From Nemertoderma westbladi (taxonomy: Eukaryota; Animalia; Xenacoelomorpha): a DNA stretch of 51,425 nucleotides. Shown in pieces: positions 22,423 to 50,548 of the stretch; within the stretch, counting starts at the first letter, position 1; every line of letters starts with the position of its first letter. Made by a program: the position numbers and the translations under genes. The notes under the pieces are model-generated. The model did no database searches and was not told where the DNA came from. It was given only the letters and a program-made list of their open reading frames with translations. The stretch covers positions 1-51,425 of the forward strand of contig JAUCBJ010000290.1 of NCBI GenBank assembly GCA_032718475.1, read 5' to 3'.

Positions 22423-22489
22423 ATTCCCACCTTCCGACACACCCAGTCACCGACCAACTTACTACTAGGATCGGCATGCTGCATTGCAG

Positions 22490-26547: not shown

Positions 26548-26615
26548 GTAACTAAATCAGCTGCCGCCCTAGATAAACTCAATAACCACTAGCCACCGAA
26601 ATCTGCAGAAGAGAG

Positions 26616-29600
26616 ATGAGTCGGTCAGGTGACACGACACCGACGCGGACCCCGGACGAAGAGCTAACGATCCGCGAGGCCGCAACCAGGCGATACAGGC
26701 CCACAACGCCGGACCCATCGGTAACGGGTCATCCGGCAGTTCAGGACGAGGGGGGCCTGGAACCCGAGGTCGAACCGAGAGAAAGAGAGAGCGAGACGGA
26801 GGGAGACGGAGACGAGTCGACACGGGACGGGGGTCGACGCACCGGTGTCGCCGGCCAGCCACAGGCCGAGGGCGACGAGCGGCCCGCCGAAACGGCGACG
26901 GTGGGGCCGACGGTGCGGCCCCGGACGCAGAGAGACGAAGGAGATATCGGTACCGATGTCGCCGGCCAGCCACAGGCCGAGGGCGACGGACGGCCCGCCG
27001 GAACGGCGACGGTGGGGCCGCCGGTACGACGTCGGACCCGGAGAGACGGAAGAAAGATCGGCGACGAGGACGTCGGGGTTTCTGATCGACTCCGACGGGC
27101 CTACAACGCGACCCAAAGACTACTAAAGGACGCTAAGAAGGAAGGGGCGAAGATAGACGAGGTGAGACTGAGGAAACGACTAGGTGAGTCGGATATACAC
27201 TTTAATTACCTAATGCGTTTTGGGCAGAGAGAACTAGCCGAGGAGAGAGCAAAAGGGGTTGCCAGCGAACTGTTTGAACTATGGGAATGTGGGAGTATGG
27301 AACCTAGCGTAGCGTCAGTGTACATAGGGCCATACTTGGTCGATGCCCGGGGAGTAAAATTAGTGGGTTAGAACAGACCTGAGGAGGGCGAATCCGAGGC
27401 TGACCCCGCGGATTCGGTCTCGTCGGTCGGAGGGAGTTCCGGGAGGAGGGGGAAAGCTAGTAGATCGGGAAGGCGGAGGGAATCCTCCACAACCGATAAG
27501 TCTGCTACATCCTCCGCGAAAGAAAGACGGGTGAGAGAGATAGACGCTAGGTACCGTCTCAATCCAGCAGTGCAAGGTAATAGAGAAGTAGGTAGACGGT
27601 TAGAGGAAGGGAGAGTGCTGCTGGAGAGGGAAATGGCATCGATTGGAGAGATAAGAGAGAGGGCCGAAAGGGCCGTGAGGAGCCTTAGGGAGTATGATGA
27701 AATAGAGTTGAAGGAACAAGAAGAGCGTGTGGCGAGAGAGAAAAGCGATCGCGAGAAGCGTGAAGCGAAGGAGGAAAGTGAACGCGAGAAGCGTGAAGCG
27801 AAGGAGGAAAGTGAACGCAGAGAGCGTGAAGCGAGGGAGGAGAGTGAGCGTAGAGCGCGTGAGGCGAGGCGAAGGGAGGGGATTAGGAGAGAGATGGAAT
27901 TGGCCAAGCAGACCGAACGGGAGGCTATGGATAAAATAGCAAAAGTGGAGCGTGAGCGAAGAGAATTGGAGAAACAGCGAGACAAACTCGTAGAGTATGA
28001 AGCTGTACACGCGCGTGAGGTGGAACTGGCGCAGTTGGGGGAGTCTGAGAGTGAGGCTGGCTCGAGTATTTTTGAGGAGCCGGGGGCCGTGGATACATTT
28101 ATTAATACCCCACTTACAGGGACCGCACGACAGACCCAAAACTGGTGTGACCGTACGGGCGGGGGGGGGGGGGGGGGGGGTAATAATGATAATGGTACAG
28201 TAGACGTGGTTAATATTAATAGTACCGTATGGGACAATTCTAATCAAACCTTTATTGCAGGAAATACTTTACCTAGTGGTAGTAATTTAAATTTAAATCA
28301 GAACATTCCTAATATTAATGTAGAAAATAATTCTAATATTAATGTAGCTACGCAAAATAATCCAATTAATCAAAGTAATAACCCAAATTCGAACTTACAA
28401 AATAATTTAAGTAATGCAATAACACAAAATAATCCAAATAACTTAAATAATTCAGCGAGCCCGAATTTACAAAATAATTCAGATAGTGTAGTCGCGCAAG
28501 ATAATTCAAATGATTTTATTTCGAACGAACAAATTAATTCCGTTTCCAATACGGGTGCTATTAATGTAAACACGTCGGGCGTGTATGGCCAGACAGACGA
28601 GGGCCTGGTAGGCCACGTAGTTGGTAGGCAGGAAATAGCTGGGTTAGGTAGACCCGGCGAGGGCCTGGTAGGCCACGTAGTTGGTAGGCAGGAAATAGCT
28701 GGGTTAGGTAGACCCGGCGAGGGCCTGGTAGGCCACGTAGTTGGTAGGCAGGAAATAGCTGGGTTAGGTAGACCCGGCGAGGGCCTGGTAGGCCACGTAG
28801 TTGGTAGGCAGGGAGTAGCTGGGTTAGGTAGACCCAGCGAGGGCCTGGTAGGCCACATAGTTGGTAGGCAGGGAGTAGAGGGCCTGGTAGGCCACGCAAT
28901 AGCAGAGGGAGAGGCGGGGGTAAATAGACCCGACCGCGGTAGGGTTGATGTGTCGATTGGAGAGGGATATAGTAGCGGGGTGAGGAGTAGCGAGGTTAGA
29001 TGTGGCGAGTGGGGGGGGGGGGGGGGGGGCTACGAGAACCCCACAACAGCGAGTTAGCGGCGAAAGGGGGGGGGGCAGAGAGTGTCCCACAGCCGTCAGC
29101 GGATAATGCGCGGGCCGAAATAGGTAAACCGCAACAACCGGCGACGGAAAGCAATAGGGGGATTGCGAGTATCCCCAGCGGCGTGCGACCGAGCAGAGAG
29201 AGACAGGTTGACGTCGTAAGAGGGCGGACGAAGCGTCGAGCCCGATCAGAAGAGGGAAGAAGAACAGTGGGGTTTAACCGGGAGGTCGACGAGAGATCTC
29301 ACGAGCGGGAACACTCCACTGAAAGGAGAAGAAGAGAAGACAGTAGTAGAGGTATCGCCGCGAATGATAGAAGAGCGAGGACGGATAGCGAGCCGTCGGT
29401 AGTTGAGATGAGAACGGAGAGTCAGTGGGGTCGGACTCCGGGAGATTGCCGTCGCCCCGGAGAGATGCGACCTGGCGAGGCGCACTACGCGCCGATGGAG
29501 GGGTACGCGATGTACCGGTACGAAGACGAGAACAGTAGAGGGGGGGGTCGAAGAGAAACTTTCCGACGGAATACACCTATCGATCGAGAATACGGTAGCC

Positions 29601-32600
29601 GCGGGGAGGATTATTCGAGAAGAATAAACTTCGATCCCGAGCGACACATGCAGACTGTAGGACGTACTGTAGGCCTTACTGCACATACCATAGGCCATAC
29701 TGAGAGAGGCAATGTAGGCGATAGGATAGCGTGGACAACGGGATTAAACCCGGAAGTCGCGGAATACATACCGGCGAGTAGGCCAGAAGCTGATAGGCCT
29801 ATACCGGTACCAGTACAGCAGTATGACTACAGCATGCAGGGACATAACATATACCCAGGGGAGGGGGGAATTATTGCGGATAGGTGTATGGGCCCCAACA
29901 TATTAACATCAACCCCAGTACCAAACATACCGGTGGGGGGGGGGGACAGGGTGACATTCCCCCATCACAATATCAACAATATACCCCGATAGGGGCAAGA
30001 ACAACGAGACCCTTGGATGAGAATAGGTCGTGTGATACAGACATATGGAGGGGGCCGCTACCCCCGATGACATACCCAAGTCAGAGAAAGTCAAGAAATA
30101 GGATGGACGGAACGCACCAGACAGGAGAAACTATGCACCACCCATCGAATCCATTGGAAGCGCAGGCGATGGGGATGGCCACGTTGATCGATGCGTTGAA
30201 AACGAGGATCGAGTTACCACCCGTGGAACCATTCAAATTCGATGGGAGCAGGCCGGAAGAATATCTACAGTTTCAGCGCATGTATAGTAACGAAATACTA
30301 ACAAAGAACTTGACGCAGGCGGAGTGCCTAAAGTATCTGCAAGTGTACACGGGAGGCCCAGCATACGACATCGTGAGGCAATATCAAGGAATAGAGGGCG
30401 GCTTCACGACAGCATGGCGGGCACTGGATAGGGAATACGGGCACCCGGCCAAGATCATCAGGCAGACGCTGAGAGGCATAACATCGGGTGGCCTACAGGA
30501 TAATCCCGTTAGCATTAAGACGTTCGCTAACAAAGTCGAAAAGGCGCTAATCGTGCTGAAGACGCTAGACGCGCCGTACGAGCTCAATGCGTCCAACAAC
30601 ATCACCACGATAGCGCAGGCACTACCAAACTGGCTGCGCAACAAGTGGAGGAAAATCGCCTTCTCCACTCGAGATAAGAAGGGTGCGGAACCGGGTTTAG
30701 AAGAAATGTCAAATTTCTTAAACTACGAGGCTGAACTAATAACTGACCCAGTCTATAGCGAAGACAGCCTGGGAAAGGGACCGAAGACAGATTACCATAG
30801 ACCGAAGCCAGAGCACAATACATCAAACGCATTACCGAGGCTCAGGCAATCATTGCCATATGCAGCGATGCAGGGGACTGCAAGTCCACAGCTAGCCGAA
30901 GATGAGACAACACCATGGAACGGACAGGGGAACAATAACAGCACGAATAAACATAACCCCAGTACGTCCAGTAGGCTGAATCCAAACAATAAGAATAGTA
31001 GGGACTTTAGTACGAACGCAACTGCGATACGCAATGCGCTGTATAAAGAGGGCTACGACCCAAAGAGCAAATGCCAGCTACACGCAAATGCGCTTCATCA
31101 AACCATGAACTGCAGGTACTGGCAGGCGCTACCTAGGCAAGATCAGATAGATTATGCGTTGAGCAATAATATCTGCTCGCGATGTGTAATGAGTGGACAT
31201 AGAGCAAGGGAGTGCAAGGAGAAGCCGATAAAATTTGGTCAGAGAAGAGGCCAAACGATGGCGACGAGCACAGTAGGAGCGAAGAAGAGAGGAACGGTGC
31301 TACTTGGAGTAGTACCGTTGAGAGTGATTGGGGAAGGCAATCGATCAGTAACAACGCTAATGCTGGTTGATAGTGGAGCTGCCTTCACATTAGTCGAGGA
31401 ATGGGTGGCCGAAGAGATAGGATTGAGAACGAGGCCAAGCAGAATGGCGGTAACAACCATCTCTAGCAAAGATGAGATCCTGGAGATGAGAACAGGACGG
31501 TGCGCAATTGCAGCAGTGGCACCAGGATGCGACTATGGGGCAACCATCGACCCCATCCAAGTGATAGAGTCAATTAATATCAATGCCAGGCGGCCAACCA
31601 ACATCGAGGTCGAGCAGTATAAGTTCCTGGACGACATTGACTTCTCAATCCCAGACGTGGACGTTAGGAAGGTATCCATCATAGTAGGTATGGACTGCCC
31701 AACGGCCCACGAAAGAATGCAAACGGTCTTCGGCGAAGACAAGCAGAGTGACCCGGTGGCCATATTAACACCATTCGGGTGGACGCTGAGTGGTCCAATC
31801 AAGAGCAAGATACCATTTAGGATGTCGGAGACATCAGGATGCATGTTCGCGGGAACAATGCAGGAAATGGGTGACGAGGGAGCAGAGGAGCAGCTCAAAA
31901 GACTGCTCAGACAAGATTTCGAGGGACTAAAAGAAACCGGGGTCGGGACCTCGGTAGAAGACAAGCAGGCTTTACAAAGCGTGGAGGAATCGATGACATG
32001 CAATGAGGGGCGGTATACTATAGGAATGGTATGGAAACTACCGAAGATACCGTTGCCCGACAATAGGGGGATGGTACTCACGAGACTCCGCAAGCTGAAA
32101 CAAACACTAAAACGGAGCCCCGAGAAGAATGAGTACATCCACAGGATGATTAAGAAGTACGTCGAGAAAGGATGGGCCGTGGAGTTACCGGTCGACGAGC
32201 CGAACACGGATAGAACATATTACCTGCCACTGCACGTGGCTTTAGATCCAAAGAAAGGTAAACTAAGGATGGTAGTCGACGCATCGGCAAAGACCGATGG
32301 AAAGTGCTTAAACGACTACCTGTTAGAAGGCCCAAACATATACAATTCGGGCATAGAGGTGTTACTTAGATTTAGAAATGGGAAACACGCCTTCACGTGT
32401 GACATAGAAGGCATGTTCAACCAAGTCCGTGTAACGGAAGAAGATAGCGACAGTCAACGCTTCTTATGGTATAACGGCGAGGAAGAACCGTCGATAATAC
32501 CGGCATATAAGATGGTGGTACAGAACATGGGGGCCAAGTTGTCTTCATTTACGACGACTATGGCAGTGAGAGACACAGTAAAGGGGAAGGAAGATAGATA

Positions 32601-35282
32601 CAGCAGTAGGGCCGTCGATATGATTCGACGCGGCTTCTACGTAGACGACGGAATGGAGTCTGGAAATACGGTTAAGGAGATACTGGATACAGGGCGCGAG
32701 GTTCGCGACTTCCTAAAGGGATCCGGCTTTAACCTGACCAAATTCCAATCCAGTTCGGAAGAATTTATCAAAGCCATAGAGGACAGGAAACCAGAATCGA
32801 CCATGGATAATCCCACAACAGCCAAAGGGCAGGACATGGCGATAAAGAGAACAGAATCTCAACAGAAGGCATTGGGAATCGTGTGGAACAGGGAGACAGA
32901 CGAACTGAAGTATCAGCTGAGCCAGGAGGGCGCAGACATCCACACGAAAAGGGGCTATGTATCGTATATAGCAAGGATATACGATCCCCTAGGCCTAGCA
33001 TCCCCATTATTAGTCACGGGGAAACAGATACTCAAGAGAGTATACAAACTGAAGGATGAGTGGGACGTAGAGGTACCAGAGGAAATCAAGAAACAGTGGA
33101 GCAAGTGGACAGGAAACTTGGAGAAGATGGGAACATACAACATGCCACGGGTGTATTTCCCGGATGGAAACATGACGAATCTGGACCTGCACATGTTCTC
33201 CGACGCATCGTTGGAAGCGTACAGAGCGGCACTCTACTTAGTACAACGAGAGGGGGCTCATAAGCCAAGACTAGCCTTTAGTAAAGCAAAGTCAACGCCA
33301 CCAGATTCAGCATCAGTTCCCAAGTTAGAATTGACAGCTGCGAGACTAGGAGTAAGAGCCACAGCCTACCTAGTGGATACTATTCCCAACATAGTGGAGA
33401 CACACTACTGGACGGACTCCATGGTAGTGCTTGGTTGGCTACATAACGAAAGGACGAGATACCCGATATTCGTCGCGAATAGAGTGGACGAAATAAGGGC
33501 GAGCACAGAACTGGAAAGGTGGCACTACTGCCCAACAGACGAGAACCCAGCGGACTTGCTGTCGAGGGGCGTGGAACGCCACACTTTCCTGAAGAAGGAA
33601 GTATTGTGGCAACATGGGCCACAATTTCTGAGCGATAGGGAGGCCTGGCCGCCGATGAGGAAGGTGGACCCGGGCTCGGAAGTAGTATCAGAAGGAGAAG
33701 AGGGAGATTCAGAGGGAGAAGAGATATACTCCCAGATGGTGAGGGAGATTAGGGACGTGCAACCAGGACGGGAACTGTGCGATAACCCGACGGATAAACT
33801 CCTCAGCTACAGTTCTAGTTGGTATAAGACCAAGAAACTAGTGGCGTACTGGAGAGCCTTCGGGAATTTCCTTGCGGGAGTCGGCAAGGACAAGAAGATC
33901 AGGACAACCATAGATCTGGAAGGAGCGGCCAAGGCAGTGATCCGCTATGAACAACGGAAGAACTACGGTAACCAACAGCACCTCCGACGGGACAGCGAGC
34001 TGATTACGCTGTCGCCACAACTCAATGACGACGGGATTCTAGTAATGAATTCTAGGGTGGGATACAACAACAGCATAGTCGTACCACCGAAACCCATCAT
34101 CATTCCTACAGGATCGCCAATAGTCCACCAGATCATATGGGACTCCCACAAATCGATATTACATGGGGGCACCAACCGAACCCTCACAGAGATAAGGAGG
34201 ACCTATTGGGTCAAACAACTGAGGAAGAAGGTAAAAGCGGTAGTGGGGCAGTGCCAGACCTGCCGACGAGCGAAGAAGGAGCGAGCCGTACAGGAGATGG
34301 CGCCACTACCGGCGAATAGGGTAAGACAGCACGACCCGCCATTTACGCATTGCGGTGTGGACATGTTCGGGCCGATAAAGATCAAAGTGATGCGACGCAC
34401 GGAGAAACGCTACGGCATTATCTTCGTATGCAACAATACGCGGGCGGTAGGGATAGAACTCGCCCAAGATGCAACCGCATCAGCGTTCATTAACGCCTTA
34501 GAAAGGTTTAGGGACCGCAAAGGTGGGACGATCGCAGTGATATAGCGACAACGGCACCAACTTTGTGGGCGCAGAGAGTGAGATGGCAGAGGCCTTGGAC
34601 ATCTTAGAGGGAGAAGAAGTCAGGGCAGCCATGAGGAGACGACAAGTAAAGTGGGAGAGAAGGACGCCGTATGCACCACATACACTAGGATGCGTCGAGA
34701 GACTGGTGGGCAGTTCAAAGCGTCTAATGACGAAGCTAATGAACACCCACATGGTCACTGAGGACGTCTTACGTACAGTACTTGCGAAGTGCGAGGGGAT
34801 CATTAATAGCAGACCGCTATATCCGGAGAATGATGACCCTGAGTCACTAGACGTGCTAACGCCTAGCCATTTCCTAATGGAAAGGCCAGCGACCATCGAT
34901 ATGCGGGGTGTAGACCCAGATGACATACACTCCCGCCAAAGTTGGAAAGTCGCTAAAGCAATAAGCGCTTAAGTTGCAATAAGCTGCAATAAGCAATAAG
35001 TATTGGAGGAGGTGGGTCGAGGAATACCTACCCACTCTCCATAAACGAAGCAAGTGGAGGAAGTCAAACAGGGAGTTAAGAGAGGGAGATCTCGTAATCG
35101 TTACGGATGATACTATCATCAACAACCAATGGCGGTTGGCGAGAGTTGTAGGCACCTACTCCGACGAGGACGGAAGAGTCCGATCGGTAGAAGTGCGGAT
35201 AGGTGGAAAGATAGGTGCGAAGGACAGAAAAACCTACAGGAGAGCTGTAGGCAAATGCTGTCTATTAGAAGGGGCACCTTAG
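26616..35282 (+). CDS. gag-pol: Inner gag-pol polyprotein, interrupted (about 2880 codons if repaired)
   Basis: 26616-27371 and 27531-29057 are in one frame split by a single TAG. Frame changes fall at G runs (~29011-29029, ~29935-29945). 29884-34545 has Gag (LPPVEPFKFDG; CSRCVMSGHRAREC), protease LVDSGA, RT YVDD, RNase H FSDAS/PKLEL/WTDS/NPAD and integrase HHCC plus GVDMFGP. There is a frameshift at (Y)SDNGTNF (~34545) and a 28-bp insertion at 34967-34994. The tail YWRRWVEEYLPTL...DEDGRVRSV ends at TAG 35282. Confidence 0.93.
28598..28900 (+). repeat. 60-bp in-frame tandem repeat in the gag N-terminal extension
   Basis: EGLVGHVVGRQEIAGLGRPG x4 plus partial copies; the first three copies are identical in DNA. 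Confidence 0.95.
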
Positions 35283-35399
35283 CAGAGTTAGAGAAAAGTT
35301 TAGTCGTCCAAGTTTTGGACTGAGGGGGGTGGGATTGAGGGCGAGACGCCCTTCCCACAAACTAAATAATAATAAAAAAAAAAAAAAAAAATAGTACAT

Positions 35400-36005
35400 G
35401 GTAGGTACGCAGTTAGTAGGCAGAGAGTTAGTAAGAAGGTACGTAGTACCTAGTTAGTTAGTTAGTTAGGAGGTACGTAGTACCGCCAGTTAGAGAATTA
35501 GTTAGAGGGTACGTAAGTACCGTTAGTTAGTTAGTTAGTTAGGAGGTACGTAGTACCGCCAGCTAGAGAGTTAGTTAGAGGGTACGTAAGTACCGTTAGT
35601 TAGTCAGTTAGTTAGGAGATACGTAGTACCGCCAGTTAGAGAGTTAGTTAGAGGGTACGTAAGTACCGTTAGTTAGTCAGAGAGTTAGAGGGTACGTAGT
35701 ACCGCTAGTTAGTTAGAGTTAGAGGGTACGTAGTACCGATAGTTAGTTAGAGAGTTAGAGGGTACGTAGTACCGCTAGTTAGTTAGAGTTAGAGGGTACG
35801 TAGTACCGATAGTTAGTTAGAGAGTTAGAGGGTACGTAGTACCAATAGTTAGTTAGAGAGTTAGAGGGTATGTAGTACCGATAGTTAGTTAGAGAGTTAG
35901 AGGGTACGTAGTACCGATAGTCAGTTAGAGAGTTAAACGGTACGTAAGTACCGTTAGTTAGAAGAGTTAGAGTTAGAGGGTACATAGTACCGTTAGTTAG
36001 AAGAG
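35400..36005. repeat. Minisatellite between pol and the extra ORF
   Basis: Units of ~30-40 bp built from (gtta)n and gagggtacgtagtaccg, about 15 copies. Confidence 0.9.
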
Positions 36006-36487
36006 AGAGAGTAAGAGGTAAAAGGGGATATAGATATAGGTATTAGTTAGCAGTTAGTAGAGAGATGGGGGCATATGAGTACAGCTGGATAAATCGTGTG
36101 GCCACACGACGCATACTGCTGTACTGCATGGACCCACAGAGTAGGCCAGAATGTGGATTAGAGAATAGAATAATCCATAGGCAGTAGTAAGTAGTAGGAC
36201 AGTAGAATCAAAGTAAATGGATAAATAAATAGAATAGGGCTGAAAGTTGTAAAATAGTGGCAACACAAGGGAAGTTATTCTAGAACATAATAAAAGTAAC
36301 GGACAGAAATTGTAAATTACGTTCATTTACTAGCTTCAAAATTAATTAGGAATAATTTAGGTTAAAGGGCGCAGTTAAGTAGGAAATAGGCCATTATCGA
36401 ACTGTACAGAACATCCTAGATACATCACTCATCTGTATTGCGCCTTGGTAAGGCACCACCTTGCAGGTGAGCGAGTGAACGTTCGGA

Positions 36488-39037
36488 ATGGCGAGTAAGT
36501 TGATCAGAAAGAGAAAGGCGGAGTCAGGAGGAAAGGAGATACTGGTGGATTTCACCGAGAGGCATCCAGAAGAGAAGACGAGAGGATACTACGAGAGGTT
36601 GGAAAGGGGTCACGCGGCACGAGCGCTGCAGGATCACTTCCGGGAGGCGCACGAACAGCGGCTGGTCGGGACCTACGGGACCCCGTCGCTGGACAATGCG
36701 ATCTTCCAACACTTCCACTACGTGGTGAAAGGGGACGAGGCGAAGTTCGGGATTCCGAAATACCCGAGGGAATCACCGAGGAAGGACTGGAAGAGATTCA
36801 TAGAGTCCGTCAACAGAGGAGGATATATGATCCTAGATGACGAGGGAACCGTGGAAGACGAGGCGGGTTCGAGACGAGGAACGGCAGGGTCGGCCAGGAC
36901 CATACTCCTACATTTGGCCGCGCCAAATGGGGACATCTTCTTATTCGACCTAGGGACGTATGGGAAGAAGGACGGGCCGAAATTAGACCGATTACCGAAA
37001 GCGGTACAAGTCTTAGTAAGAGAGAAGTCGACGACGAAAGTGGGATCGGCGATTCGCGAGGACGTGGAGAGGATCATCGGTCCGGACGCCACCAACCTCC
37101 TGGATATGCAGAAAGTCTTTATGGCTATGACGGCACCGGATGGATTGGGGGTAGTCGAAAACACAGGCCAATGCGGGGCGGTGGCGATGGGCCAATTATT
37201 GGGGCTCGTATGCCACAAACCGATGGACTGGGGGAAGTTTAGGGAAGAATACGGAGCAGAACTAGCGAACTCGCTAAAGTGGGGAGCGAGACCGGGAAAG
37301 CAGGAGGTATATCAGTTCCGCAGGGGAGCGATAAAGGTATATCAGAAGCGATATATCCTGCAGGAGGACTGGATGATGATAAGTTTGCTTAACTTATTCA
37401 TTACCGTGATTATCGAGAGGGAACCAGGGGCATTTCTGTTATCGGGATCACCCCTAAGCTACAGGAGAGCCTTTAAAGTGGCCTTTGACGGTCTGGTAGA
37501 CCACCCGGGGCTGAAGGGCGAGTCGGTGTACTACAACACCCGACATCTGGTAGACGGGGAGACAGATACACCGTATCAGAGATGGGAGCAGCTAGAGACG
37601 GATAGACGAGAAGCAAAGCGACTGGAAGAAGTCGCTAGACGGGAGAGGATAGAAGCAGAGGAGAGGGAAGAGGAGGCCAGGACACAGAGTTACGGCTTCG
37701 AGGAACAGGCGGGCCTAGACGAACTTCATTGGACTTCGTCAGGGAGTTCGGGGAAGTCTCTAGGGCGGGAATTGGGATGGACGGTGGGATCGCCGAAACA
37801 GTCGACATCGGGGTTGCAAACGATGCCCATACCAGCGGGCGCCGAGGGCGACCAACCGCCAAGGAAGTTAAGGGAGCTAGAGGGATGGAGAGCTACGGGC
37901 GAGAGCCAAGGCGGGAAGGGACATAGTGGATCCATTGGGATACCGGGATTGGAGACACTACCAGAAGAGGAGGACGACGACGACGAGTTCGGAGAGATGC
38001 CGTCCATCGAGAGGATAGGCCACTCGGACACGGACTGGGTTGGCGGAAGGGTGGTGACGGCCAGTGGGGCGAGGGCCTTCTGGAACAGATCCGGCAAGCG
38101 GACCTGGGTGCACGAGGAGCCGGCGATGGATTTCGCGGGGAGCACCATCAGGTTGGGCGAACAACCGGGGACGGCACCACGGGTAGTATTCGGGGAGACG
38201 ATGCCCGAGAGGGGCGGAGAGATCGACGTAGATAGAGAGACCAACGTAGAGAAGTTCGCCTACCAGCGACTCCACAGACCGCGGAGATCGCTTGGGACGA
38301 AAGACGAGGTGGGACGGGAGACATTGGTACTCGGCTGCGACTACTGTGGGAGACAGACCCATTGGGAAAGCAGCTGCCTATACCGGTTCCAAAAGGGAAC
38401 CTTTTGTCTCTACTGCAGAGAACCAAGTCACAGGATGGGGGCGTGTCCACGGTTGCATAACCGATGTCCAAAGTGCCACTTTCGGGGACACTACGGACGC
38501 GAGTGCGACTGGATGAACGACGAGGAGAAGTTCACAAGATTCGAGGAGTGGGCCGACGTCGGGGCCATGACGCGCCAGCGCATGAAGGCCCAGGAGTTCA
38601 AGTGGGGTTTCTTCCTTATCAATCAGGAGACTCACATGGAAATCATAAAGCGGAGGCTACCGTTTACCTACCAAGAGGTAGCAACGGCGGCGTCGTACGC
38701 TGGAGTGATGAACACGCAAAGGTATCTGGACAGGTGGATGCCAGAGAACCGAAGGGAGTTTAGGGATTTCTTGGCGGAGCACGTACCAAAGGCAATGAAA
38801 ATGATCCTATGGGACGCCACCAGAGGGAGACAACCGGGTCACTCTGAGGGGCCACCGGCGAAGCGATATCGGGCACTAATAACACCAGCGCCCAAGGAGC
38901 CAACGACCGGGATCAGCAAGGAAGTGGCGGCGAAGGTCCGAAAGCAGAAAGCGGATGATGCCAGAGGAACGGTGATAACCAAGAAACGACCCAGGGAAGA
39001 GGACGCCAGGGGGAACTACCCCCGGAGGAACAGATAG
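36488..39037 (+). CDS. Intact 849-aa accessory ORF: DEDDy-like 3'-5' exonuclease domain plus three CCHC zinc knuckles
   Basis: ExoI-like ILDDEG; LLHLAAPNGDIFLFDL; LPKAVQVLVREKSTTKVGSAIRED (ExoII-like); LLDMQ; ExoIII-like QKRYILQE. Knuckles CDYCGRQTHWESSC, CLYCREPSHRMGAC and CPKCHFRGHYGREC. Basic termini. The ORF is certain; the exonuclease call is from motif recognition. Confidence 0.8.
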   Translation: MASKLIRKRKAESGGKEILVDFTERHPEEKTRGYYERLERGHAARALQDHFREAHEQRLVGTYGTPSLDNAIFQHFHYVVKGDEAKFGIPKYPRESPRKDWKRFIESVNRGGYMILDDEGTVEDEAGSRRGTAGSARTILLHLAAPNGDIFLFDLGTYGKKDGPKLDRLPKAVQVLVREKSTTKVGSAIREDVERIIGPDATNLLDMQKVFMAMTAPDGLGVVENTGQCGAVAMGQLLGLVCHKPMDWGKFREEYGAELANSLKWGARPGKQEVYQFRRGAIKVYQKRYILQEDWMMISLLNLFITVIIEREPGAFLLSGSPLSYRRAFKVAFDGLVDHPGLKGESVYYNTRHLVDGETDTPYQRWEQLETDRREAKRLEEVARRERIEAEEREEEARTQSYGFEEQAGLDELHWTSSGSSGKSLGRELGWTVGSPKQSTSGLQTMPIPAGAEGDQPPRKLRELEGWRATGESQGGKGHSGSIGIPGLETLPEEEDDDDEFGEMPSIERIGHSDTDWVGGRVVTASGARAFWNRSGKRTWVHEEPAMDFAGSTIRLGEQPGTAPRVVFGETMPERGGEIDVDRETNVEKFAYQRLHRPRRSLGTKDEVGRETLVLGCDYCGRQTHWESSCLYRFQKGTFCLYCREPSHRMGACPRLHNRCPKCHFRGHYGRECDWMNDEEKFTRFEEWADVGAMTRQRMKAQEFKWGFFLINQETHMEIIKRRLPFTYQEVATAASYAGVMNTQRYLDRWMPENRREFRDFLAEHVPKAMKMILWDATRGRQPGHSEGPPAKRYRALITPAPKEPTTGISKEVAAKVRKQKADDARGTVITKKRPREEDARGNYPRRNR

Positions 39038-39749
39038 GTTCCCAGAGTCGAGGGAGAGAGACTGGGACTTGGACGTGGTACGCCTGGAAGGCGCCGCGTG
39101 GGATGTACGAACTATTAAGCACAAATTTAATTAATGCAAAATAATCATATAAGTGCAATTTGTATGTACGTACGTAGTAATTAGTAATCTAGAAATATAT
39201 ACGTTCGGAGTAAGTACTATAGTCATACAACCTTTCTCAATTAGCTACTGGGACTGGGGGATAACTGACTATGGCACTATGGACGAGACACCAGACAATT
39301 TCACACTTCTTGAGTGCGACGGCATGAGAGGGGGGGGGGGGGAGATTCGTCAGAAGGGAAGAGACAGTCGAAGTGAGGTTGAGGGACGGAATAATAGTGC
39401 AGAGTGCGGAGAGAGTGCGGACGCAATTCTAGTGTGGGGGGGAGAATAAGAGGCTGAGTGAGGGACGAGGAGGTCCGAGTGTGAGAGAGTTAGGGTGAGA
39501 GTGAAGAAGAGATAGGGCGGAAGTGTTGGGAAAACAAAAGTTGCGTGAGAGGTGAGCGCGATCGGCCCGACATGAGACGCAAGGCACACAGGGTAGCGTT
39601 ATCATACCCATAGGGGGCGGCCTGGAAAGCCGACTCCGAGAGAAAAGAATTCCACCCCACACCCGATACTAGATCGGGATCCAGCGGGATTGTAGCGCAC
39701 TTTTTTGGTTGATGCTATCTTCTTACCGGGAAGATAGCATGGGGGGGAG

Positions 39750-40287
39750 TGTTAGCTTATTCAATCCCGCTAACACCCCATAAAGTTATAAGCCGATAAG
39801 CAATATTGGGAGCCACGAGATTGGATAATTAACCAACTCGTGCCATCCCAATAAGAGTGGGAAGGAAGCACACAATAGAGGGTCAGGGGCCAAACCCCTA
39901 ACCCAGAGAGAATAGGTGGAGTGAACGGGAGCACTCCAAGGGGCGCCAACAAGGGTATCAACCAATCAGAGGGGGGAAAGGCATCGATTAGGTAGAGTAA
40001 CAAGGCCAACCGTGCAATATAGCCACTTGGCAGTAATAATACCAATTCAGTTATCTCAGTGCAATACCGGTGCTAGTTTAGGTTATTACATAGTTTTAGA
40101 TAGGGAAGGACCGGGACTTTAGTTACCGTATCCCGCCTTCCATATACGACAATACTATATCTATATCTATATCCACATATCATATTATATACGACAAACA
40201 ACATCAGAACTCATTCACTCTTTATACACGGCGGGGACGCGTGAACTAAAACCGGATAAACCGGGATCCCTCTTGGATCCCGTCACA
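39750..40287 (+). repeat. 3' LTR of the inner element (538 bp)
   Basis: Follows the PPT. Differs from the 5' LTR by two substitutions that I could see and a 26-bp indel (40005-40030). Confidence 0.97.
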
Positions 40288-43277
40288 ACTGGGATGAAGG
40301 CCATTTTACCCAGCAACATAATATACCTAGATTCAACACTGATTATCCAGGGGTGCAGATCTTACTTGGCCAAAATGCGCACGAAGCGCTTGAGACATTA
40401 GAAAAACGGCCTGCTCGACCGCAACCATTGCAGACGTATGCGGGAAGAACGAGAGTAGGTTGGTACTTCACTGGACCTTCCCGTAGAACCCTAATGGAAA
40501 GACTCCCTAATGAAAGAATACATCAGGTGAGTGAATGGGAAGAAGAAATCAGTGAGGGAGAAACCACAACTGAGGAAGTTCCATACTCCATCTCATCAAT
40601 CAACATGGCGGACAATTTACTTATAACGATGAATTAAACGAAGTGATAGATCGATAGATCGAAGTGATAGAACTAAACGGATTTGTCTAAGTATCCTAAG
40701 CACTTATTTCGATCCATTGGGATTCATTAGCCCAGTTATATTAGTTGCTCGGAGCTTAGTGCAACAAATGTGGCTCGAAAACCACTCGTGGGATGATCCA
40801 CTTAAGGGAGAACTGCTAAAGAAGTGGATGAAATGGGAAGATTCTCTACCATCCATCGAGAACTTTAAGATTTCCGTTCATATTTTGGTCACGTTCTCCC
40901 CACGTATTCCTATCAACTCCATGTGTTTGGAGACGCCAGCGATATGGGAATAGGTATAGTAGCCTACCTGAGAGTTGAAACTCCGGATGGAATTAAAGTT
41001 GCCTTGGTCGCCTCTAAGGCCCTAATAAACAACAAACTACGAGTTCCTAGAGCGGAGTTAAAGGCGGCTCTATACGCTACAGCCATCGGCCGGAATGTAA
41101 CAGAACAGATCGACTATCCACTGGAGAAAACTGTTTATTGGACTTATGCTTTACTCGTTCTGGAGTATATAACAAATGAAGTCTGTCAGTTCATCGTCTT
41201 CATTACCAACAGAGTAGCCATTATACTTAGTCGCTCTAATGTAGATCAATGAAGACATTGCCCTGGGACGATCAATCCAGCCGACATCGCCTCCAGAGGA
41301 GCAACTCCTCAAGAACTGATAGATACTCCAGACTGGTTAGGTGGACCCGACTTCTTAAGTAAAGAAGAGGATGAATGGCCTCCTCATCTTACCATGGCGG
41401 AGATTAGACAAGCCAAGGGAGCGGAGAAAGTCAAACCTAAAACCCGGATGAGTAAATCAAAGTTATTTAAACCCATGATAGATCTGTCTGTACTACACAT
41501 CTCCGGGGACGACGCTGTGGATCTAAACTCCACCACTACGAACAAATCTGTTATAGAAATCAGGGAAAGAGACTGGAAATCTGGAACACCAGATGTCTCG
41601 CAAGGACTCTCCCCTCTCCTACAGAGAGCAATAAATCATTATAGCTCCTGGAATCGGCTTTGCAAGGCCGTTGTGTATCTTAAGAGATGTTTCCATAATC
41701 ACTATTCCAGGACGAAGATCGCTAGTGATACCGCTCCAATAATATCCGAAAAGGTCCATGTTGTTAAAGACCTTCCCACTTATAAAGTGTCTGATAGGTT
41801 TCTGACTGAGAAGATCAGTTACCATGAACATGAGGATACCAATAAGCAGATACTGAGACTCCTGCAATGCTACGAAGATTCCGATAAGTATTTCCAGTTG
41901 TTGAGAAATCCACAGATGCGTTTAAGGGATCGTTTCTCTAGCACAATGATAGATGGGTTAATACGTGTCGGAGGGAGATTAACTAGTGCTCCATTGTCCT
42001 TTGACACTAAATTTCCCATACTCATTAGAAATCTTGAAATACAATTAAAGATGATTGTAGATGTTCACAGTAGGCTTTACCATGCTGGTAGAGAACGAGT
42101 TCTTAGCGAAATTCGAACTCGCTATTATTTCCATAAGCCCCATAGAGCTCTGAACCAAGTTCTTAGGAACTGTATACCCTGTAGGAAAGCATTTGGTAGG
42201 CCTTTAACACAGAGAGAGGCAGAATTACCTAGGGAACGAGTAAGCTTCTATGAACCACCCTTAATTAATACTGGTGTGGACTTATTTGGCCCTATTGAAG
42301 TATATCGTGCTAGGACTATAGTCAAGCGATGGTGTGTCATTTTTGTCTGTATGACTTGTAGAGCGATCCATCTAGGTATGGTGAATTATCTATCTACCAA
42401 CAGCTTCATACTGAGTTTACGCCGACAGATCGCTCGTTTTGGGACTAGCAATACTATGAGATCCGACAAAGGAACGAACTTCATTGGCGCCAATAATGAG
42501 ATCAAAGCTTACGTGAAAGATTGGAACCAAAGACAGGTGGATGATCAGCTAAGGGTAACGGCATCTAGCTGGACCTTCAACGCCGCCGACGCCCCTTGGT
42601 GGGGAGGAAGTTGGGAGAGATTAATACGGAGCATGAAGACCGCATTTCACTTTGTAGTGCCGTGCCGCGCGTATCTCACCGATGAACTTTTGCGGACATT
42701 AATGGAAGAAATCGCCGCCTATCTTAACGAGAGACTGCTTATGCCAGTCTCATCGAGTCCCGACTCCCTAGAAGCACTAACACCCGCGCATTTCCTACTA
42801 AAGAAACCTGTAGCCATGCTCCCGCAATCGGAAATCATGGACGGAGATGAATACTGCCGACAAACTTGGCAACTTATGCAGTTATTATCCCGTCGTTTCG
42901 CTGACCATTTCGAAAAACATTATCTTCCTATGCTACAACTTCGAACAAAGTGGTTTGCGCAGCAAGAAAACGTAAGCGCCAGAGACATGGTCCTTATCGT
43001 GGAATCAGATCTTCCACGTAAGCGGTGGCAGACAGGTCGTATCATCGAGACTCATATATCCGATGATGGTTTAGTGCGATCGGTAGAACTCGTCGTCATG
43101 CGACGTAACTTTAAGAAACCTGGAATTGTATTCGAAACACAACAACTTAATCGCCCAGTTGGTCGTTTATGTTTACTGGAAAGAGATCGAGAATTGTCCG
43201 GAAACTATGGAAGGCAAGATACTCTTCCCACGACCACCTCCCTAATCCAGCAAACATCTAGGGACTCCCCAACGTAA
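40288..43277 (+). pseudogene. pol: Outer BEL/Pao pol remainder: protease end, RT deleted, RNase H region and integrase
   Basis: Removing the inner element rejoins EAYNW|DEGHF...QILLGQ...VGWYFTGP in frame. Next come TKRICLS...FDPLG, FGDAS, PRAEL and NPADIASRG. Integrase (41394-43277) has H..YHAG, CIPC, GVDLFGP, SDKGTNF and WERLIRSMK. No RT motifs are present. Confidence 0.92.
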
Positions 43278-43859
43278 CACCATTTGGAGTGGGTGTGTGA
43301 CAACATTATTTTATTTTATTTTTTATTTTTTTTATATTTATGTATGTATTATTACATAATTTTATTATTATAATCGTTTTCTTTAATTTTATTTAGTAGT
43401 ATAATATTTTAACGATTATTCAGTAAATTAGTGCAATATATATTCGTGTTTATTACTTAATTACTTAGCATAATATATTTCGTTTAACGGCGAGAAATAA
43501 TTCATTTTCTCTTTCCTTACTGTCCGTATCATACTATAAATATGTGACTACAGTAAGATGAAATGTCCGTACTTATTAAAGTACAAAATACCGCCCCTAC
43601 TATACTTAAGTATTATTGGTAAGTAGAGTATTAGGAATGCAAAGTTCAGATCCTCGTGTCTCGGCTAAACCAAGCTCTAGGTAGACCTTGGAAACGACTT
43701 GCCTCTTCTCACTGACATTGCTTCTTGCAATATTGCTCTCATACCGTATATTAAATAATACATATAGTAGAATGATGTCCATTTAACAGTAGCGTTGAAG
43801 TTCAAAATATTAACAAACATTATTAATATCATTAATGTTATCAAACAAATCTGTTAATA

Positions 43860-44270
43860 ACCTTCAAATAAATCTGTTAAACCCTTTGACCATCTGAAAT
43901 TCTAGTCGATTAAGATATCGCGGCACCCACCGATATACTTGAAAGACAAAATTCTAGAATCAGTGGTTAACGTCCCCAGACATGTTCTGGAATAAATCGG
44001 TGCCATCTTAAATATTAAATATTTAATAAATATTTATAAAATCTGTTAAAACAAATGTTATAATAGAGTAAATGCTGACAAATTAACTCTAGAGAGTTTG
44101 TAAATCAAAATCTATTAAAATTTAGATCCTTTAAAATTCTAGTCGATTAAGATATCGTAGCACTTACTGATACTCTTAAAAGGACAAAATTTCTAGAATT
44201 AAGGATCCTAGTTCCCAGACATGTTCTGGAATAAAATTGTGTCTATTTTAATATCAAATAATAAAATTTA
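43860..44270. repeat. Imperfect direct repeat (period ~237 bp) in the outer element's pol-to-accessory-ORF spacer
   Basis: aaattctagtcgattaagatatcg occurs at 43897 and 44134; cccagacatgttctggaataaa occurs in both copies. Confidence 0.85.
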
Positions 44271-45057
44271 CGGGAATAAATTTTAAATTCATATCCTCTC
44301 ATGAATTTGATAAATTGTCATTTTATACAATTTATAACATTCCCAAAATTCCATTAATTAATAGATCATGGGAGCGGAGATTCACCCTATTAAGTATATT
44401 AGTGTGCGAGAATCTCCAGTGTACAGTCAATAGCCGATAAAATTCACAAATTCATGTATAAGGGGAATATTGACAATTAAAGAATCACTATTAAATAGCA
44501 TCCCAGATCTGTATGCATGAGAATTACCCTAATTCTACCGCTAGCTTTCCATAATGTCACCATAGCAACAACCACGCTAGAATTAGAAGCGAGTTAAAAG
44601 AACAATAGAAAGCTTGCCCCATTGAATAGCATACGTAATAAATAGCACCCTGCTAGTATCCAGGGATACATAATAATAACGTGGCATTCTGGAAGGTACT
44701 TGACTAACGGACAAATGGCCCGAATGCGTACAATTTGTGACAGGAATGTGGAATTTGTGTATTTATAGGTGAATGTTACTACTAAAGTGTGTTTACAGTA
44801 GCGAGTCGCAGTTGTGAAAGTTACCCTGCCTCTGTAGCAAGAACCTCCAGTAAATCTAAGCCCTTGGGACGGACAGTGGAGTGACTCGCGCTGATTATTG
44901 TTGTCGTTGTGTAGCTACTACGTTGGCGAGAGGCACAGCTACGATAGTACATCAGTGCTGAGGATCTTGCGCTGTCCGGGGGCACTGAGGGGGAGGCAGC
45001 GACGACCGCTAGCCTAATTATAATTAATTATAATATCGATAAACTCATATAGCAGCT

Positions 45058-48000
45058 ATGACTGAGTTGGTAGAAGATGATCTTGGTATCAGGGAGCGAT
45101 ATACCCTACCATTGCAGGCGTTTGTTGATAGTTTAATAAGCAGCGACGCTAGTCAACATACTACAGAGGACGATGGCCGTTATATCGAACCGCCAATGTC
45201 AAAGGAACAGCTCACACGTGAATTGGACTATAGAAAATTCACCGCTCGCTATACGCATCGTAATGGTACGTATATGGACTTCTTAACGACTGGTCATCCT
45301 ATCGATTTACACGACACGGACGATGTAGACACCGAAAGGGAAATGATTCTATTTAAATATCATACCCAGCGGAGTCGGAATGATAAACTGAGAATTGAAC
45401 ATGAAAATTCTATTCGAAACCGACTCGAAAGAGAAGATATTGAAGAGCCAGATAAACGCAGTGACTTCAACGAATATTTGGAATTCTTGAGAGAAACATA
45501 TCTCAATGTAGCCAGTCAACAAAATCTAGAAACTCGATATCCTCAAGGTATACATCATAACCCTATGATAGAACTCAAACGACTCTATTTCACTATGATG
45601 TATCTTACCGCCGATCGACCACTACCTGTTGTACCGGATAGCTTCAAACTGGAACTGGAACTGGAACTTGTAAAACTGGAGAAAGATCACCAGCGTTTCC
45701 CCTACAAGACGTGCGTCTTAGGTATTATTGCGATGAATGCCCTAGACCCAACCAACAAACGGAAAGACATAAACATCCGCGGAGACGTTGCGCTAAACAC
45801 AGTTTTACTCGCTATACTTACGGGAGTTTCGAGCAAAACTTGTTCGACGAATCACCCACGCTCGCTCGACTCAAACGATCCTTAAATAAACCGATGATCA
45901 GAGTTCCGGAATACTCGGTCAGACCTCCTTATTCCCTGGTGAGACCTCAGACTCTTGATCCTAATAGTATGACGGATCCTCCTGAACTGTACTCATTGTT
46001 CAAAGATCTAGTGTTACCCGAACAATTAGTCGGTGGCACTCTGGTAGTGGGCTCCCTAGATATTCGCCCATCCTACCTAGCTGGATTGGGACGCGGACAT
46101 CTAATATCGCCGTTCAACCCGTATAATCGTCCTGGTTTAACTCCGATACAACCTGTCACCGAGGTGGAGGAGAGCGTTGTACGAAACGCATTAGACGCTA
46201 TTCGACAAAAGATCGGAAAAGGAACCTATGATTGTTTAGACAAACGTAAATTGCAGCAACAAGTCCAAGCGGTAAAAGAATTAGCTTTACCCCAGTTCGA
46301 TCTGGAAATCCAGAATCTCGAAGAAGATATCGAACTTGGATGAACCTACTTGCTGCAAGAGTTTTTGGACGAACGCTTCCAATGACAAGCGGAGGAAAAT
46401 CAGCTCGAGGAGAAGCATGTCGAAATGGACGAGAGAGAAGAAGCAGCTTTAGCCCAGCCAGAAGCTCAAATCCGTATGACTGATCTCTATTCCAAAACCA
46501 CCATTCATCCTTCGATGGTTCCCCAGTTCGGAGACAAACTCTTCGCCACGGTACAACCCCAACCGGTTGATATCAACTTAAGATCTAGAGATCTTATCGC
46601 TGACGCTCCTATGTTACAACGTCTGCCAATCGAGGCCGCTCGTGCCGACAGTGTACTCGTTGAACCTCCGGACAATCGAGCGGATCTTGTCCGTCGTATG
46701 GTACACGAGGTCAACCTACGTGCTAGACCTTTACCGAACTCATTTTATGGGATCAAAGACCACCCCTATTATGTCAATTTAACTCAATATATTATATGGT
46801 AAAACCGGAAGATCCTACACATAGTTTAAGGTTTCTACCACTGATAAACCCCCTAGATCTTGTTGAACTAGAACAACTACAGAAACATCTAGATCAATTG
46901 GTCAAAGTAAACTCATTTAGAAAACCTTATAACGTTTCAAGAATAGAAAAGGATATAATGCCTCTGTATAATCTCGATGGATTTATTAAAACTCGATTAG
47001 TCCATTGGAATCTCGATGTATTATTCGAGGAAGAGAGAATACAGCGATATGGAGATGCAGAGACTTATACTACACATTATCTGAAGTATAGCGATCTACC
47101 TAACGCAAGCGAACGCGCTACCTTATGGCATCCGGTGGGTATGACTATAGAAAACGCCACCAAGGAGTGGAACGAGACTCTTAACGTTATCGAAATGTAT
47201 GGAGTTGTCACTTATGATAACGAAGGTAGCATTCCGGTTGGAGAACTGGGAACTACGCGAATGATACACATACGTGGACTAGCTGGTTCTACCCATTTGT
47301 TTACTCGAGCGTGTTCCGACATGATTTATTATTCTTTTGAGACTCTCACCGAGATACAAAAGAAACTCCGACATGGACAATTCGAACTCGCTCAGCGTTA
47401 TGTTACCGATACCGAGCGCAAACCGGCCATGGGTTTAGATGGATTGATGCTACCCCAGCCAGTGCTCGAGATGCTGTTCGATGAGAGAATCCTTAAAATC
47501 GGCTCAGCTGTTTATGGAGATCTCCAAAATATCTTCAGAAACATGGAGAATATCCCATATCCTTTCATAGACACCCAGCTGATTGCTCCCTGGGCAGAAG
47601 GCCGAGGTTTCTTCCAAACTATGTATGCCAATACATCCAGCGGCATCAATAAAGTACAACGAACCTCTATCGGACATCTTGCCTTCCAAGAATGCGGATG
47701 GAATTTCAAAGTCGGAAACCCTGTCAGCTACCAACAAGTATATGGAGATCATTATTCTCGCTTATACTTCGAAGGACCATTAACTGCACCTGGCGTCGTT
47801 TATAGCTTTATGAGTGTTCCACTCCGTCCCTCATTAGCTATATACACTATCTTCGAGAACGCCGCACTTGCCGGTTGGCTAGCTGATGTGTGCAGTCGCA
47901 CTATACGCGCCCATCCCTTGTTACTTGGAACCAAGCTCGCCAAGCTAGATGAACACAATAAATTCATCCGACTCGAATGCTTTAGGCACTTTCTGACTCC

Positions 48001-49318
48001 GTTCCGTAACGTTGATAGTCTGTTCAAGGACTGCACTCTGACCAAGCTCAGCTTAAGAGACTCAGCTGCTGAGAAGTTGGACAGCACTGGATTCGCCATT
48101 TTTAAGGACGTGTGTATACAGAACTTACATTCATCTGTTATACAAAGACCCCGAATCCCCACAGGTTATTCTATCGTGGAAGTTCAAACAGTGGGTTCGC
48201 TTGAGGAGACAGCTACACCTACCTCAGCTATGCAATTGGAAGATGAACCAATTTGCTTAGAGTCCGAGGAGATTCAACCCACAGCTCCCAGGAGCAGTGA
48301 CAACAACTACATTCTGGAATGGTATCAAGGTTCACAATGTCTCACCGCATACGACTATCGGCATGCCAATTATGTTTCTAGGAAACATTGCTGATTATGC
48401 TCCTCACAAGATCACTTCACCCCGGTGGACTCCAGCGTACCCTGCTCCTACTTTAAAGATCAACCTTCCATGGAGATCTATTGCGCGTATTGTAGACTCA
48501 ATAACCTACACATATTCGCAGTCTGTCCTCAATTTATGACTCAATGTCATCATTGCCAGTTTAAAGGAAACGCAAGTTTCGATTGCCCTTTCAACCGAGA
48601 TCTAGAAAGCGTAGACGAAATGGTTGCCCTGCGTTATATTCGAGCCTGGGAAACTAACGCGGATCTCCATTGCGAATCACGTCATCGATACTACCCTGGA
48701 CATGCCTATGAAGGAGTCTATGCATTTCACCCATATCTCTTTGCTTCCGTTGAGCAAAAATCTCGCACCCCTAGCTACGAGCTAATGAAGCGTGTTGGCG
48801 AGAATATTTCAACTAAATTTGTTCGCAAGTACCTTAGGAATATTAATCCTAACGACCTTAATTCCTATAACTTGATCAACTTCATCCGTTAAGATCCGGA
48901 ATATGGTGACTTGTTCGTAAACTCGCATCCAGAGCTACAAGAAGTTCATAGACGACCCTATGAATATAGAGCCCGAGAACGCGAGTTGGAAAGAACCATC
49001 AAACCGAGGAAATTTCTCACTACTCACGGTCCACCTACCGCTCTCGTGCAAATGACTCGTCAGGGACCAGTAAGAGCTGCTGTCCTGAAACGCGCTCTAA
49101 AGGTCGTTCGACCTCGTTCTACTGAGGTTGATATCGATCAACCGGGTACCTCGACCGGCGGATACACCGACCGTAATCCGAAACCTTCTGATGCAATTGT
49201 ATTGCACCCCTCACCCAGGAGTTATAGCCCTCCTAGTAAAGTGGCTCGCCCCAAAGAGAAAAAGACTCTTACTAGCCTCAAAAAACTTCGTAAACGCCGT
49301 TCACGAAAGAAGGACTAA
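45058..49318 (+). pseudogene. Disrupted accessory ORF of the outer element: DEDDy-like exonuclease plus three zinc knuckles (about 1400 codons)
   Basis: 46796-48394, 48425-48892 and 48911-49318 are one frame broken by TGA and TAA. 45711-46343 and 46425-46802 are one frame broken by two TGA. Motifs: TYDNEG; LPQPVLEMLFDERILKIGSAVYGD; FIDTQ; PL...AIYTIFE; C*LCSSQDH..C, CAYCRLNNLH...C and CHHCQFKGN...C. Homologous by eye to 36488-39037. Confidence 0.8.
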
Positions 49319-49396
49319 TAGTTTAGAGTATTTTTGTATTTTAGAAACTGTGATTTTTTATATTTTATAGACTTAAATCCCATTTTCTGGGAGCGG

Positions 49397-50548
49397 TGTA
49401 AAAGCTTTTGCGGACATAACAAGTCATTTTTACGCAATGCGCAGAATACTCTAAAATAGCCCTAAATTTGTCCAACTACGCGACGGAAGGAATTAGAGCC
49501 AGGATGACGAAATCTGTCAGCTGATTCTTTGTGGACGTGGAGTTTCTTTGTTCTGCCTTATTCAGCCAATCAGAGCAATTTTCACTTTATGTCTAACAGA
49601 AACCTATGGAAACTCGCGCAATGCATTACGGTCTTTGTTTACTATTTTCTGAGCATCAGAGCCAGCTCGGAATTTTCTGTGCTTCTGTGTGGAAGTTTCA
49701 GACTTTGGCCTAGGAACATCAGATGGCCTTGATTATAAGAACGTAAATCTATTAACTTGAATCACTTGTCATTACTTATCATACTCATCACTGAACATTT
49801 ACTTTACTATAGTAACACATACTGACTGTTCACCGCATTATTTTACTTCTGTTTTATGTATTAATTGTTGTTATATTAATGGATATTGCTGTTATATTTG
49901 GAGAATACCGATAAATAATCATAAACCCCTCAATCTTATTGATTACTGAGGTAAGAGGAACAGAGTTTACCGGTAGCAACTGCGACTTAAATTATAGTGG
50001 TTTTGTGTGAATTAAATGCTATTTCATAATCCCTACGTGTGTCAGTTGCGATCCTCCTTATATATGATCAAATTCAGTGACGGTCGGCAGATTAGTGCGA
50101 ACTAGTGTAAAGTAGTGTGAAGTAGTGTGAAGTCGTGTGAAGTAGTGTGAAGGTTAATAAAGCATCTCCTAAAGAATGCGCTATTTACGAAACTCTGTGG
50201 CCATCTAGTTGTGATTAGTATAAGTCATAACTCTGTTTTTATACTTAAAGCGCCACGTCCTAAAGGAACTGTTAATATTTCCCCGAAAGTAAATATATTT
50301 GTCAGAGATTATATAGTAGCGATCAATCGAATAATACAGTAGGTCTACACTGCAATAACTCTCAAGGAATCCGAATCCAGTCTCCCACACCGTGGGTCAT
50401 ACGCCGCGCACGGACTGGCTTCGGCTGATGTAACTTCAGTACACCAGGTAATTGGTAAAGGCTAGAGTCGATTTATAAACAAGAGGACAACTAAAATTGG
50501 CAGGTTAAACTGCTAAAGGTCTGAAAGCGCGAACATTTAGTTTACACA
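49397..50548 (+). repeat. Putative 3' LTR of the outer element (end uncertain)
   Basis: Purine-rich gggagcgg followed by TGT at 49397, ~80 bp after the accessory ORF stop. CCAAT box (~49564), tataaga (~49734) and aataaa (~50156). There is no partner LTR in the window, so the right boundary is a guess. Confidence 0.4.

Follow-up and report, generated by a model that had tools for sequence, protein, structure and literature searches.

Juno and Vesta of bdelloid rotifers are Gypsy-type elements, and the exonucleases of nidoviruses (ExoN) and of arenavirus NP are DEDDh-type enzymes of RNA viruses. The papers cited below by PMC number are represented by excerpts of their text. In these, a third open reading frame (ORF3) of Juno and Vesta encodes a DEDDy exonuclease that is common to Terminons, and exonucleases are exchanged between retroelement types (Rodriguez, Kenefick, Arkhipova 2017, PMC5408684), while the viral enzymes are captured DEDD-family exonucleases serving a mobile genome in proofreading or immune evasion (PMC7968707). 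The BEL/Pao long terminal repeat (LTR) retrotransposons that have a third gene (Tas, Cer7, Cer13 and Atlas) are ordered gag, pol and third gene before the polypurine tract (PPT), and the third genes described encode env-like fusion proteins (PMC8742986, PMC9094657). Here, a 51,425-nucleotide stretch of Nemertoderma westbladi DNA (contig JAUCBJ010000290.1 of assembly GCA_032718475.1; the window) is analysed, in which two BEL/Pao elements lie one nested inside the other. The subject is the region 45058-49318, located 3' of the integrase of the outer element. With fair confidence, we read it as what remains of a gene that encoded an RNase D-like exonuclease followed by three zinc knuckles. This would likely be the outer element's third gene, and its product would trim RNA at the 3' end, probably as a means to blunt host small-RNA silencing.

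The window genes resemble rotifer ORF3 in that an ORF of its own, placed after pol at the env position, encodes an RNase D-like DEDDy domain, and catalytic residues are apparently retained in both. By description they are set apart by a BEL/Pao host (PF05380, PF18701, PF03564) and not Juno or Vesta, by the motif D-E-D-E (YxxxE) instead of DEED, and by three C-terminal CCHC knuckles, none being described for rotifer ORF3 in the excerpts (PMC5408684). The gene order is likewise that of the BEL/Pao elements with a third gene, but 45058-49318 is without a predicted membrane segment, unlike the env-like products (PMC8742986, PMC9094657).

In the literature searched, which did not extend to supplements, Repbase or GyDB, there is no report of an exonuclease in BEL/Pao or of a DEDDy domain with triple knuckles, and the element lists attached to PMC3118150 or entries of Repbase or GyDB could include such ORFs. 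The word 'exonuclease' has 0 occurrences in the excerpts of PMC2774666, PMC3118150, PMC8556966, PMC554778, PMC9094657, PMC7084138, PMC13524379 and PMC12440569. Within this literature, DEDDy third genes are known from rotifer elements, and the BEL/Pao host and the triple knuckles appear to be new. Malik et al. reportedly described in 2000 a 3'-5' exonuclease domain in Cer13, a BEL/Pao element of C. elegans; should this be so, Cer13 is a precedent for an exonuclease in BEL/Pao.

A decayed exonuclease-knuckle gene and its homologues

The sequence-only reading had described 45058-49318 as a second, divergent copy of the exonuclease-knuckle gene at 36488-39037, with the same motif order, and this order is borne out: an exonuclease, three knuckles and a basic C-terminus are present in both. 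By BLASTP, the outer and inner proteins match over the knuckles at E 3e-7 and over the exonuclease at E 0.016. The corresponding shuffle tests give z 10.8 and z 5.6, each with 0/1000 shuffles, and tblastn against the whole window (E about 0.4-0.6) falls at the predicted place. With the downstream frame of the outer region as query, and not its N-terminal part, HMMER gave a single match among 1.84 billion representatives, P0002 (648 aa, E 4e-6); this protein is a singleton, encoded on a contig of 9,449 nt in a public assembly. P0002 has both the exonuclease and the knuckles and bridges the inner and outer proteins, matching the outer exonuclease at E 1e-12 and both domains of the inner protein at E 2e-9 and 3e-15, with shuffle z of 23.6 and 14.5 for its exonuclease against the two window proteins. 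When the 862 ORFs of the window are ranked by a profile that combines the inner protein with P0002, the two outer pieces come first (E 3e-6 and 4e-6; 1.1 for the ORF that follows); the profile was made without outer sequence, but P0002 was found via the outer protein, which makes the test partly independent. These comparisons show the 3' part of the outer region to be truly, if distantly, homologous to the inner third gene.

The homology does not extend over the whole 3' part. Similarity had been said to continue past the knuckles, a claim that is not supported: beyond the last Cys, a stretch of 90 residues gives z -0.5 with the inner protein (706/1000 shuffles as high) and z -1.0 with P0002, whereas the inner protein and P0002 give z 10.4 there. 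The basic tails of the outer and inner genes have a common composition only. Word-indexed searches of proteins, restricted to near lengths, gave nothing at E 0.01, whether the query was the outer ORF, the inner ORF or the three-sequence alignment. The top plasmid match by tblastn (E 0.06) was discarded because it fell on an unrelated ORF.

The exonuclease domain is RNase D-like. Among matches that carry a name, RNase D comes first both in NCBIfam (TIGR01388, E 9.6e-5) and, with the three-sequence profile, in the PDB (E 0.04), where EXD2 follows at E 0.19 with two cytochrome P450 rows between; a search of the E. coli chromosome yields one candidate, rnd, and hhalign gives a probability of 90.8 over 46 columns. 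PF01612 is carried by 25 of the 30 ESM Atlas matches, with PF01612 clusters at 0.92-0.93 and fungal and giant-virus clusters in the lead; the shared-feature count is 163, below the 170 typical of true members. AlphaFold models are weak (mean predicted local distance difference test scores of 30 and 36), and a fold search with one such model gave no match. An untrimmed alignment with E. coli RNase D put the first Exo motif in the wrong place, and trimmed alignments were used. In these, DxE, D and YxxxE fall on the three Exo motifs in 3/3 proteins, the DxE of ExoI aligns with the DTE of RNase D in both trimmed alignments, and the Asp of ExoII is present. As in the RNase D/EXD2/WRN-type enzymes (PF01612), the three motifs stand in the same order; the window proteins differ from these in scoring below the cut-offs, in carrying insertions between the motifs and knuckles after them, and in that no HRDC was detected.

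Functional copies are rather probably active Mg-dependent exoribonucleases, in which the knuckles would grip single-stranded RNA and the basic tail would determine where the protein goes. Two results speak against this assignment: the family motif of ExoIII, YxxxD, is replaced by YxxxE in 3/3 proteins, and the curated cut-offs are missed (Pfam 11.9 vs 23.6 bits; TIGR01388 21.8 vs 298.95). The same substitution and the very low scores to known families would suit an RNA-binding module in which catalysis is weak or lost, as in EXD1 or Maelstrom, but the four acidic positions are all retained, together with the Tyr, in three proteins that are only 23-27% alike, which points to selection on catalysis; a weak or dead module is improbable.

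The knuckles of the inner protein are three fingers of the CX2CX4HX4C type. In the outer region, the first has a stop codon and a longer spacing, and the third is without its His ligand. The third knuckle ends in Cys in 3/3 proteins; in the triple Cys-His box of BEL/Pao Gag, the third finger ends in His (PMC554778). That the knuckles were copied from gag of the same element was considered and rejected, as the outer knuckles score z 0.3 against outer gag and z 2.6 against inner gag.

Placement relative to the outer BEL/Pao element

The outer element shows the BEL/Pao order, gag and then protease, reverse transcriptase (RT), RNase H and integrase with Pao-type domains, although the RT core is lost from the window copy (Table 1). 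The region 45058-49318 lies on the same strand, and its synonymous codon use is outer-like in all six pieces of 45058-49315, at +0.16 to +0.23 bits per codon; as references, the left-out outer integrase gives +0.15 and the inner third gene is inner-like, at -0.25. The layout of the inner element matches, consisting of pol, a G-rich tract, a 1.2-kb repeat-bearing spacer, the third gene, the PPT and the LTR. The inner G-rich tract directly after pol (35322-35334) is no LTR start but lies inside the element, and therefore such a tract need not mark an LTR. It is likely, though not proven, that 45058-49318 belongs to the outer element as its third gene. With the same good confidence, the outer 3' LTR is placed from 49397, beyond the gene, where a TATA-like sequence, TCAGT and AATAAA follow in order, which we take to be LTR motifs. 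Between this TCAGT and AATAAA lie six copies of a 10-nt unit, at 50093-50152.

The gene had been described as following the outer integrase and preceding a purine tract/TGT boundary. Both statements stand, but the boundary is not unique: a similar tract with TGT opens the spacer, and the outer element has two candidate PPTs, at 43286 and 49389. PPTs of BEL/Pao normally directly follow the integrase stop, where the first of these is found. The outer element could accordingly end at an LTR from about 43295, and in a region that is a nest of insertions, 45058-49318 would then be the 3' remnant of a third, 5'-truncated tandem element of the same kind. We regard this as unlikely, since the inner element has an equivalent G-rich tract yet runs on through its third gene, since strand, codon use and decay are all as in the outer element, and since the tracts 43280-43298 and 49380-49399 are alike by eye, as an internal PPT copy would be. 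In the inner element, too, the tract after pol resembles by eye its own 3' purine tract (35322-35334/39741-39749), and the G-rich tracts after pol are possibly internal second plus-strand priming sites. A gene flanked by its own LTR pair was also considered and rejected, as the sequences from 43295 and 49397 do not match each other.

A host gene or retrocopy that chanced to sit beside the element is very improbable. The window copy is indeed not enclosed by an LTR pair, but its homologue sits between near-identical LTRs, the region is intronless over 4.3 kb with decay equal to that of the element, and there is no close cellular relative among the 1.84 billion representatives.

Several results nevertheless tell against the assignment to the outer element. 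Its outer-like codon use may be merely genome-like, the comparison having no host-gene control. No outer 5' LTR matching the sequence from 43295 or from 49397 is found in the window, including upstream of gag, and a search for a complementary primer-site (self-priming) link for the outer LTR gave chance-level matches only. Scans of metagenomes, viral contigs and prokaryote genomes for related loci were empty and gave no other copy.

The inner and outer pol are 26% identical over 405 columns of RNase H-integrase, and the gene pair is therefore not a recent duplicate. The region had been taken as independent support for a module conserved in a BEL/Pao lineage. The homology, the exonuclease-knuckle identity and the independent P0002 uphold this in part, but the placement inside the outer element is likely and no more. 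From two elements alone, vertical conservation is indistinguishable from exchange of the module between lineages, and the exchange between retroelement types in rotifers therefore calls for caution in taking two examples as one lineage. The exonuclease-knuckle gene probably represents an old accessory gene within one BEL/Pao branch.

Table 1 Features of the two nested elements and of the region 45058-49318 (window positions).
Feature	Position	Strand	Remarks
Inner BEL/Pao element	26036-40287	+	14,252 nt
Inner LTRs	26036-26547 and 39750-40287		2 substitutions/512 columns and one 26-nt indel
Inner third gene	36488-39037	+	intact, 849 aa, enclosed by inner LTR pair; homologue of 45058-49318
Outer gag and protease start	22940-26035	+	broken
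Outer RT thumb/RNase H and integrase	40633-43277	+	broken; PF05380, PF17921, PF18701
Non-coding spacer, integrase to gene	43278-45057	+	opens with G-rich tract and TGT, 43286-43298
Upstream coding region	45058-46802	+	about 580 codons; frame change about 45670-45830, stops 46341, 46383
RNase D-like (DEDDy) 3'-5' exonuclease domain	47027-47920	+	TIGR01388, ESM Atlas, E. coli RNase D alignment
Catalytic positions	DxE 47216/47222; D 47519; YxxxE 47843/47855	+
Three CCHC-type zinc knuckles, decayed	48389-48586	+
Basic low-complexity C-terminal tail	48893-49318	+	after stop 48890; 15 lysine or arginine in last 40 residues
Purine tract and TGT, candidate PPT/outer 3' LTR start	49389-49399	+	inferred boundary
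TATA-like; TCAGT; AATAAA	50059; 50074; 50156	+	in that order after 49397

The inner element is bordered by a 5-nt target duplication and carries gag and pol (PF03564, PF05380, PF17921). Its insertion site is the protease region of the older outer element, whose frame picks up at 40293. At 40635, outer pol passes from the protease-RT linker straight to the RT thumb, and a short direct repeat lies where the two join. Inner gag and pol hold stops and frame changes (27371, about 34541 and 34972), yet the inner third gene is fully open. The spacer between inner pol and the third gene contains about 16 copies of a 36-nt unit (35422-36009), and the outer spacer a duplicated 150-nt unit (43870-44021 and 44108-44260). 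Just upstream of outer gag, at the expected place of the outer 5' LTR, lies a 774-nt imperfect palindrome (21664-22437; 79%) that resembles a miniature inverted-repeat transposable element; a 41-nt sequence is directly repeated there, at 21545 and 22421. Positions 1-9200 are a satellite array in which 26- and 34-nt subunits build 60- and 86-nt units. Searches for tRNA genes and Rfam families gave zero matches.

Coding path and N-terminal region

The region 45058-49318 is a decayed coding region with two frame changes and four internal stops. A codon model trained on outer gag and pol only, and scored in 300-nt windows, chooses a single frame in every such window from 45100 to about 49000 (weakly at about 48100-48700); in 43300-44950 and past 49300 it chooses none. 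The path runs in frame 0 from the ATG at 45058, in frame 2 after about 45670-45830 and in frame 1 after about 46730-46800 until the stop at 49318, with in-frame stops at 46341, 46383, 48392 and 48890. The decay is comparable with that of the outer element: 4.3 kb hold 6 breaks, and 5.9 kb of outer gag-pol hold at least 6.

Ahead of the exonuclease lies a long N-terminal region. The sequence-only reading had counted about 700 codons before DxE, against about 115 in the inner protein. The count is accurate, with the Asp of DxE 719 codon-lengths from 45058 and DxE at residue 117 of the inner protein, though the path crosses two frame changes and two stops. The N-terminal region is coding-like and acidic (13-19% aspartate or glutamate), and no membrane segment is predicted in it. 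No domain had been recognised in it, and searches of Pfam, PDB, PHROGs and NCBIfam likewise returned nothing significant; it also has no significant match to gag or other sequence in the window.

The 580 extra codons are somewhat likelier to be a lineage-specific N-terminal extension than a separate ORF. In the alternative, which we hold more tentatively, there would be two genes, a 580-codon ORF (45058-46802) and an exonuclease-knuckle ORF from the ATG at 46796, coupled by overlapping stop and start. The overlap of this ATG with the upstream stop is 7 nt; counted from the ATG, DxE falls at residue 141, near 117 in the inner protein and 62 in P0002, and the optimal frame switch is at 46790, with 46727-46799 within 3 bits. 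At the observed decay rate, however, one further frameshift is expected, and by eye an acceptor-like AG stands ahead of 45058 and 36488, with none ahead of 46796. The AG just 5' of the ATG at 45058 has an AT-rich stretch upstream. The single ORF is slightly favoured because of the decay rate and the acceptor-like AG, found before 45058 only.

Possible role of the product

Third genes of LTR elements are usually expressed via a spliced subgenomic RNA, and this gene would, somewhat probably, have been expressed in the same manner. Its product would be a soluble exonuclease, in which the knuckles would hold single-stranded RNA while the nuclease trims RNA 3' ends. The inner exonuclease gene occupies the env slot of its element. 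An env-like role was rejected, as there is no membrane segment and the maximum 19-residue hydropathy is 1.34.

The target may be host silencing RNA or its precursors and not the element's nucleic acid; tentatively, this is the most likely single role. It is drawn by analogy alone, which counts against it. The nuclease might instead act on the element's own nucleic acid, by proofreading or trimming of cDNA ends or by trimming an RNA primer, and so aid unusually long genomes in the manner of nidovirus ExoN, though we find this doubtful. BEL/Pao elements are 4.2-10 kb long in the excerpts of PMC8742986, while the inner element measures 14.3 kb, and the outer, with neither RT core nor LTRs counted, spans 12.2 kb or more between gag and PPT; DNA-active members exist among DEDDy enzymes (PMC5408684). 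The inner element also is without a tRNA-type (TGG) primer site; a 9-nt site right after its 5' LTR (26548-26556) is complementary to 26378-26386 inside the LTR (null 0.0055). Against a role on the element's nucleic acid, the gene stands apart from pol and shows no sign of RT fusion, and it makes up much of the extra length itself. As a side observation made by eye at the same primer region, splicing of a 41-nt GT..AG stretch (26342-26382) would give 12 Watson-Crick pairs and one G-U in 14.

More speculatively, and with low confidence, giant BEL/Pao elements of 14-15 kb that form an ancient branch could carry an active triple-knuckle YxxxE exoribonuclease as a dedicated suppressor of silencing by PIWI-interacting or small interfering RNAs, to which the outer family would add a module of 580 residues. 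The window copy 45058-49318 is dead; it adds corroboration and an unexplained N-terminal region, and no new mechanism.

One odd cargo gene could be an accident, but recurrence argues otherwise: a two-domain gene that lies beside two elements 26% alike in pol and is found again in P0002, with its catalytic positions kept, suggests a maintained function. Few counter-defence or fidelity enzymes are known from animal LTR retrotransposons. The intact inner gene supplies a natural candidate, with a putatively soluble product, and bears on the question raised in rotifers of what a retrotransposon does with an exonuclease.

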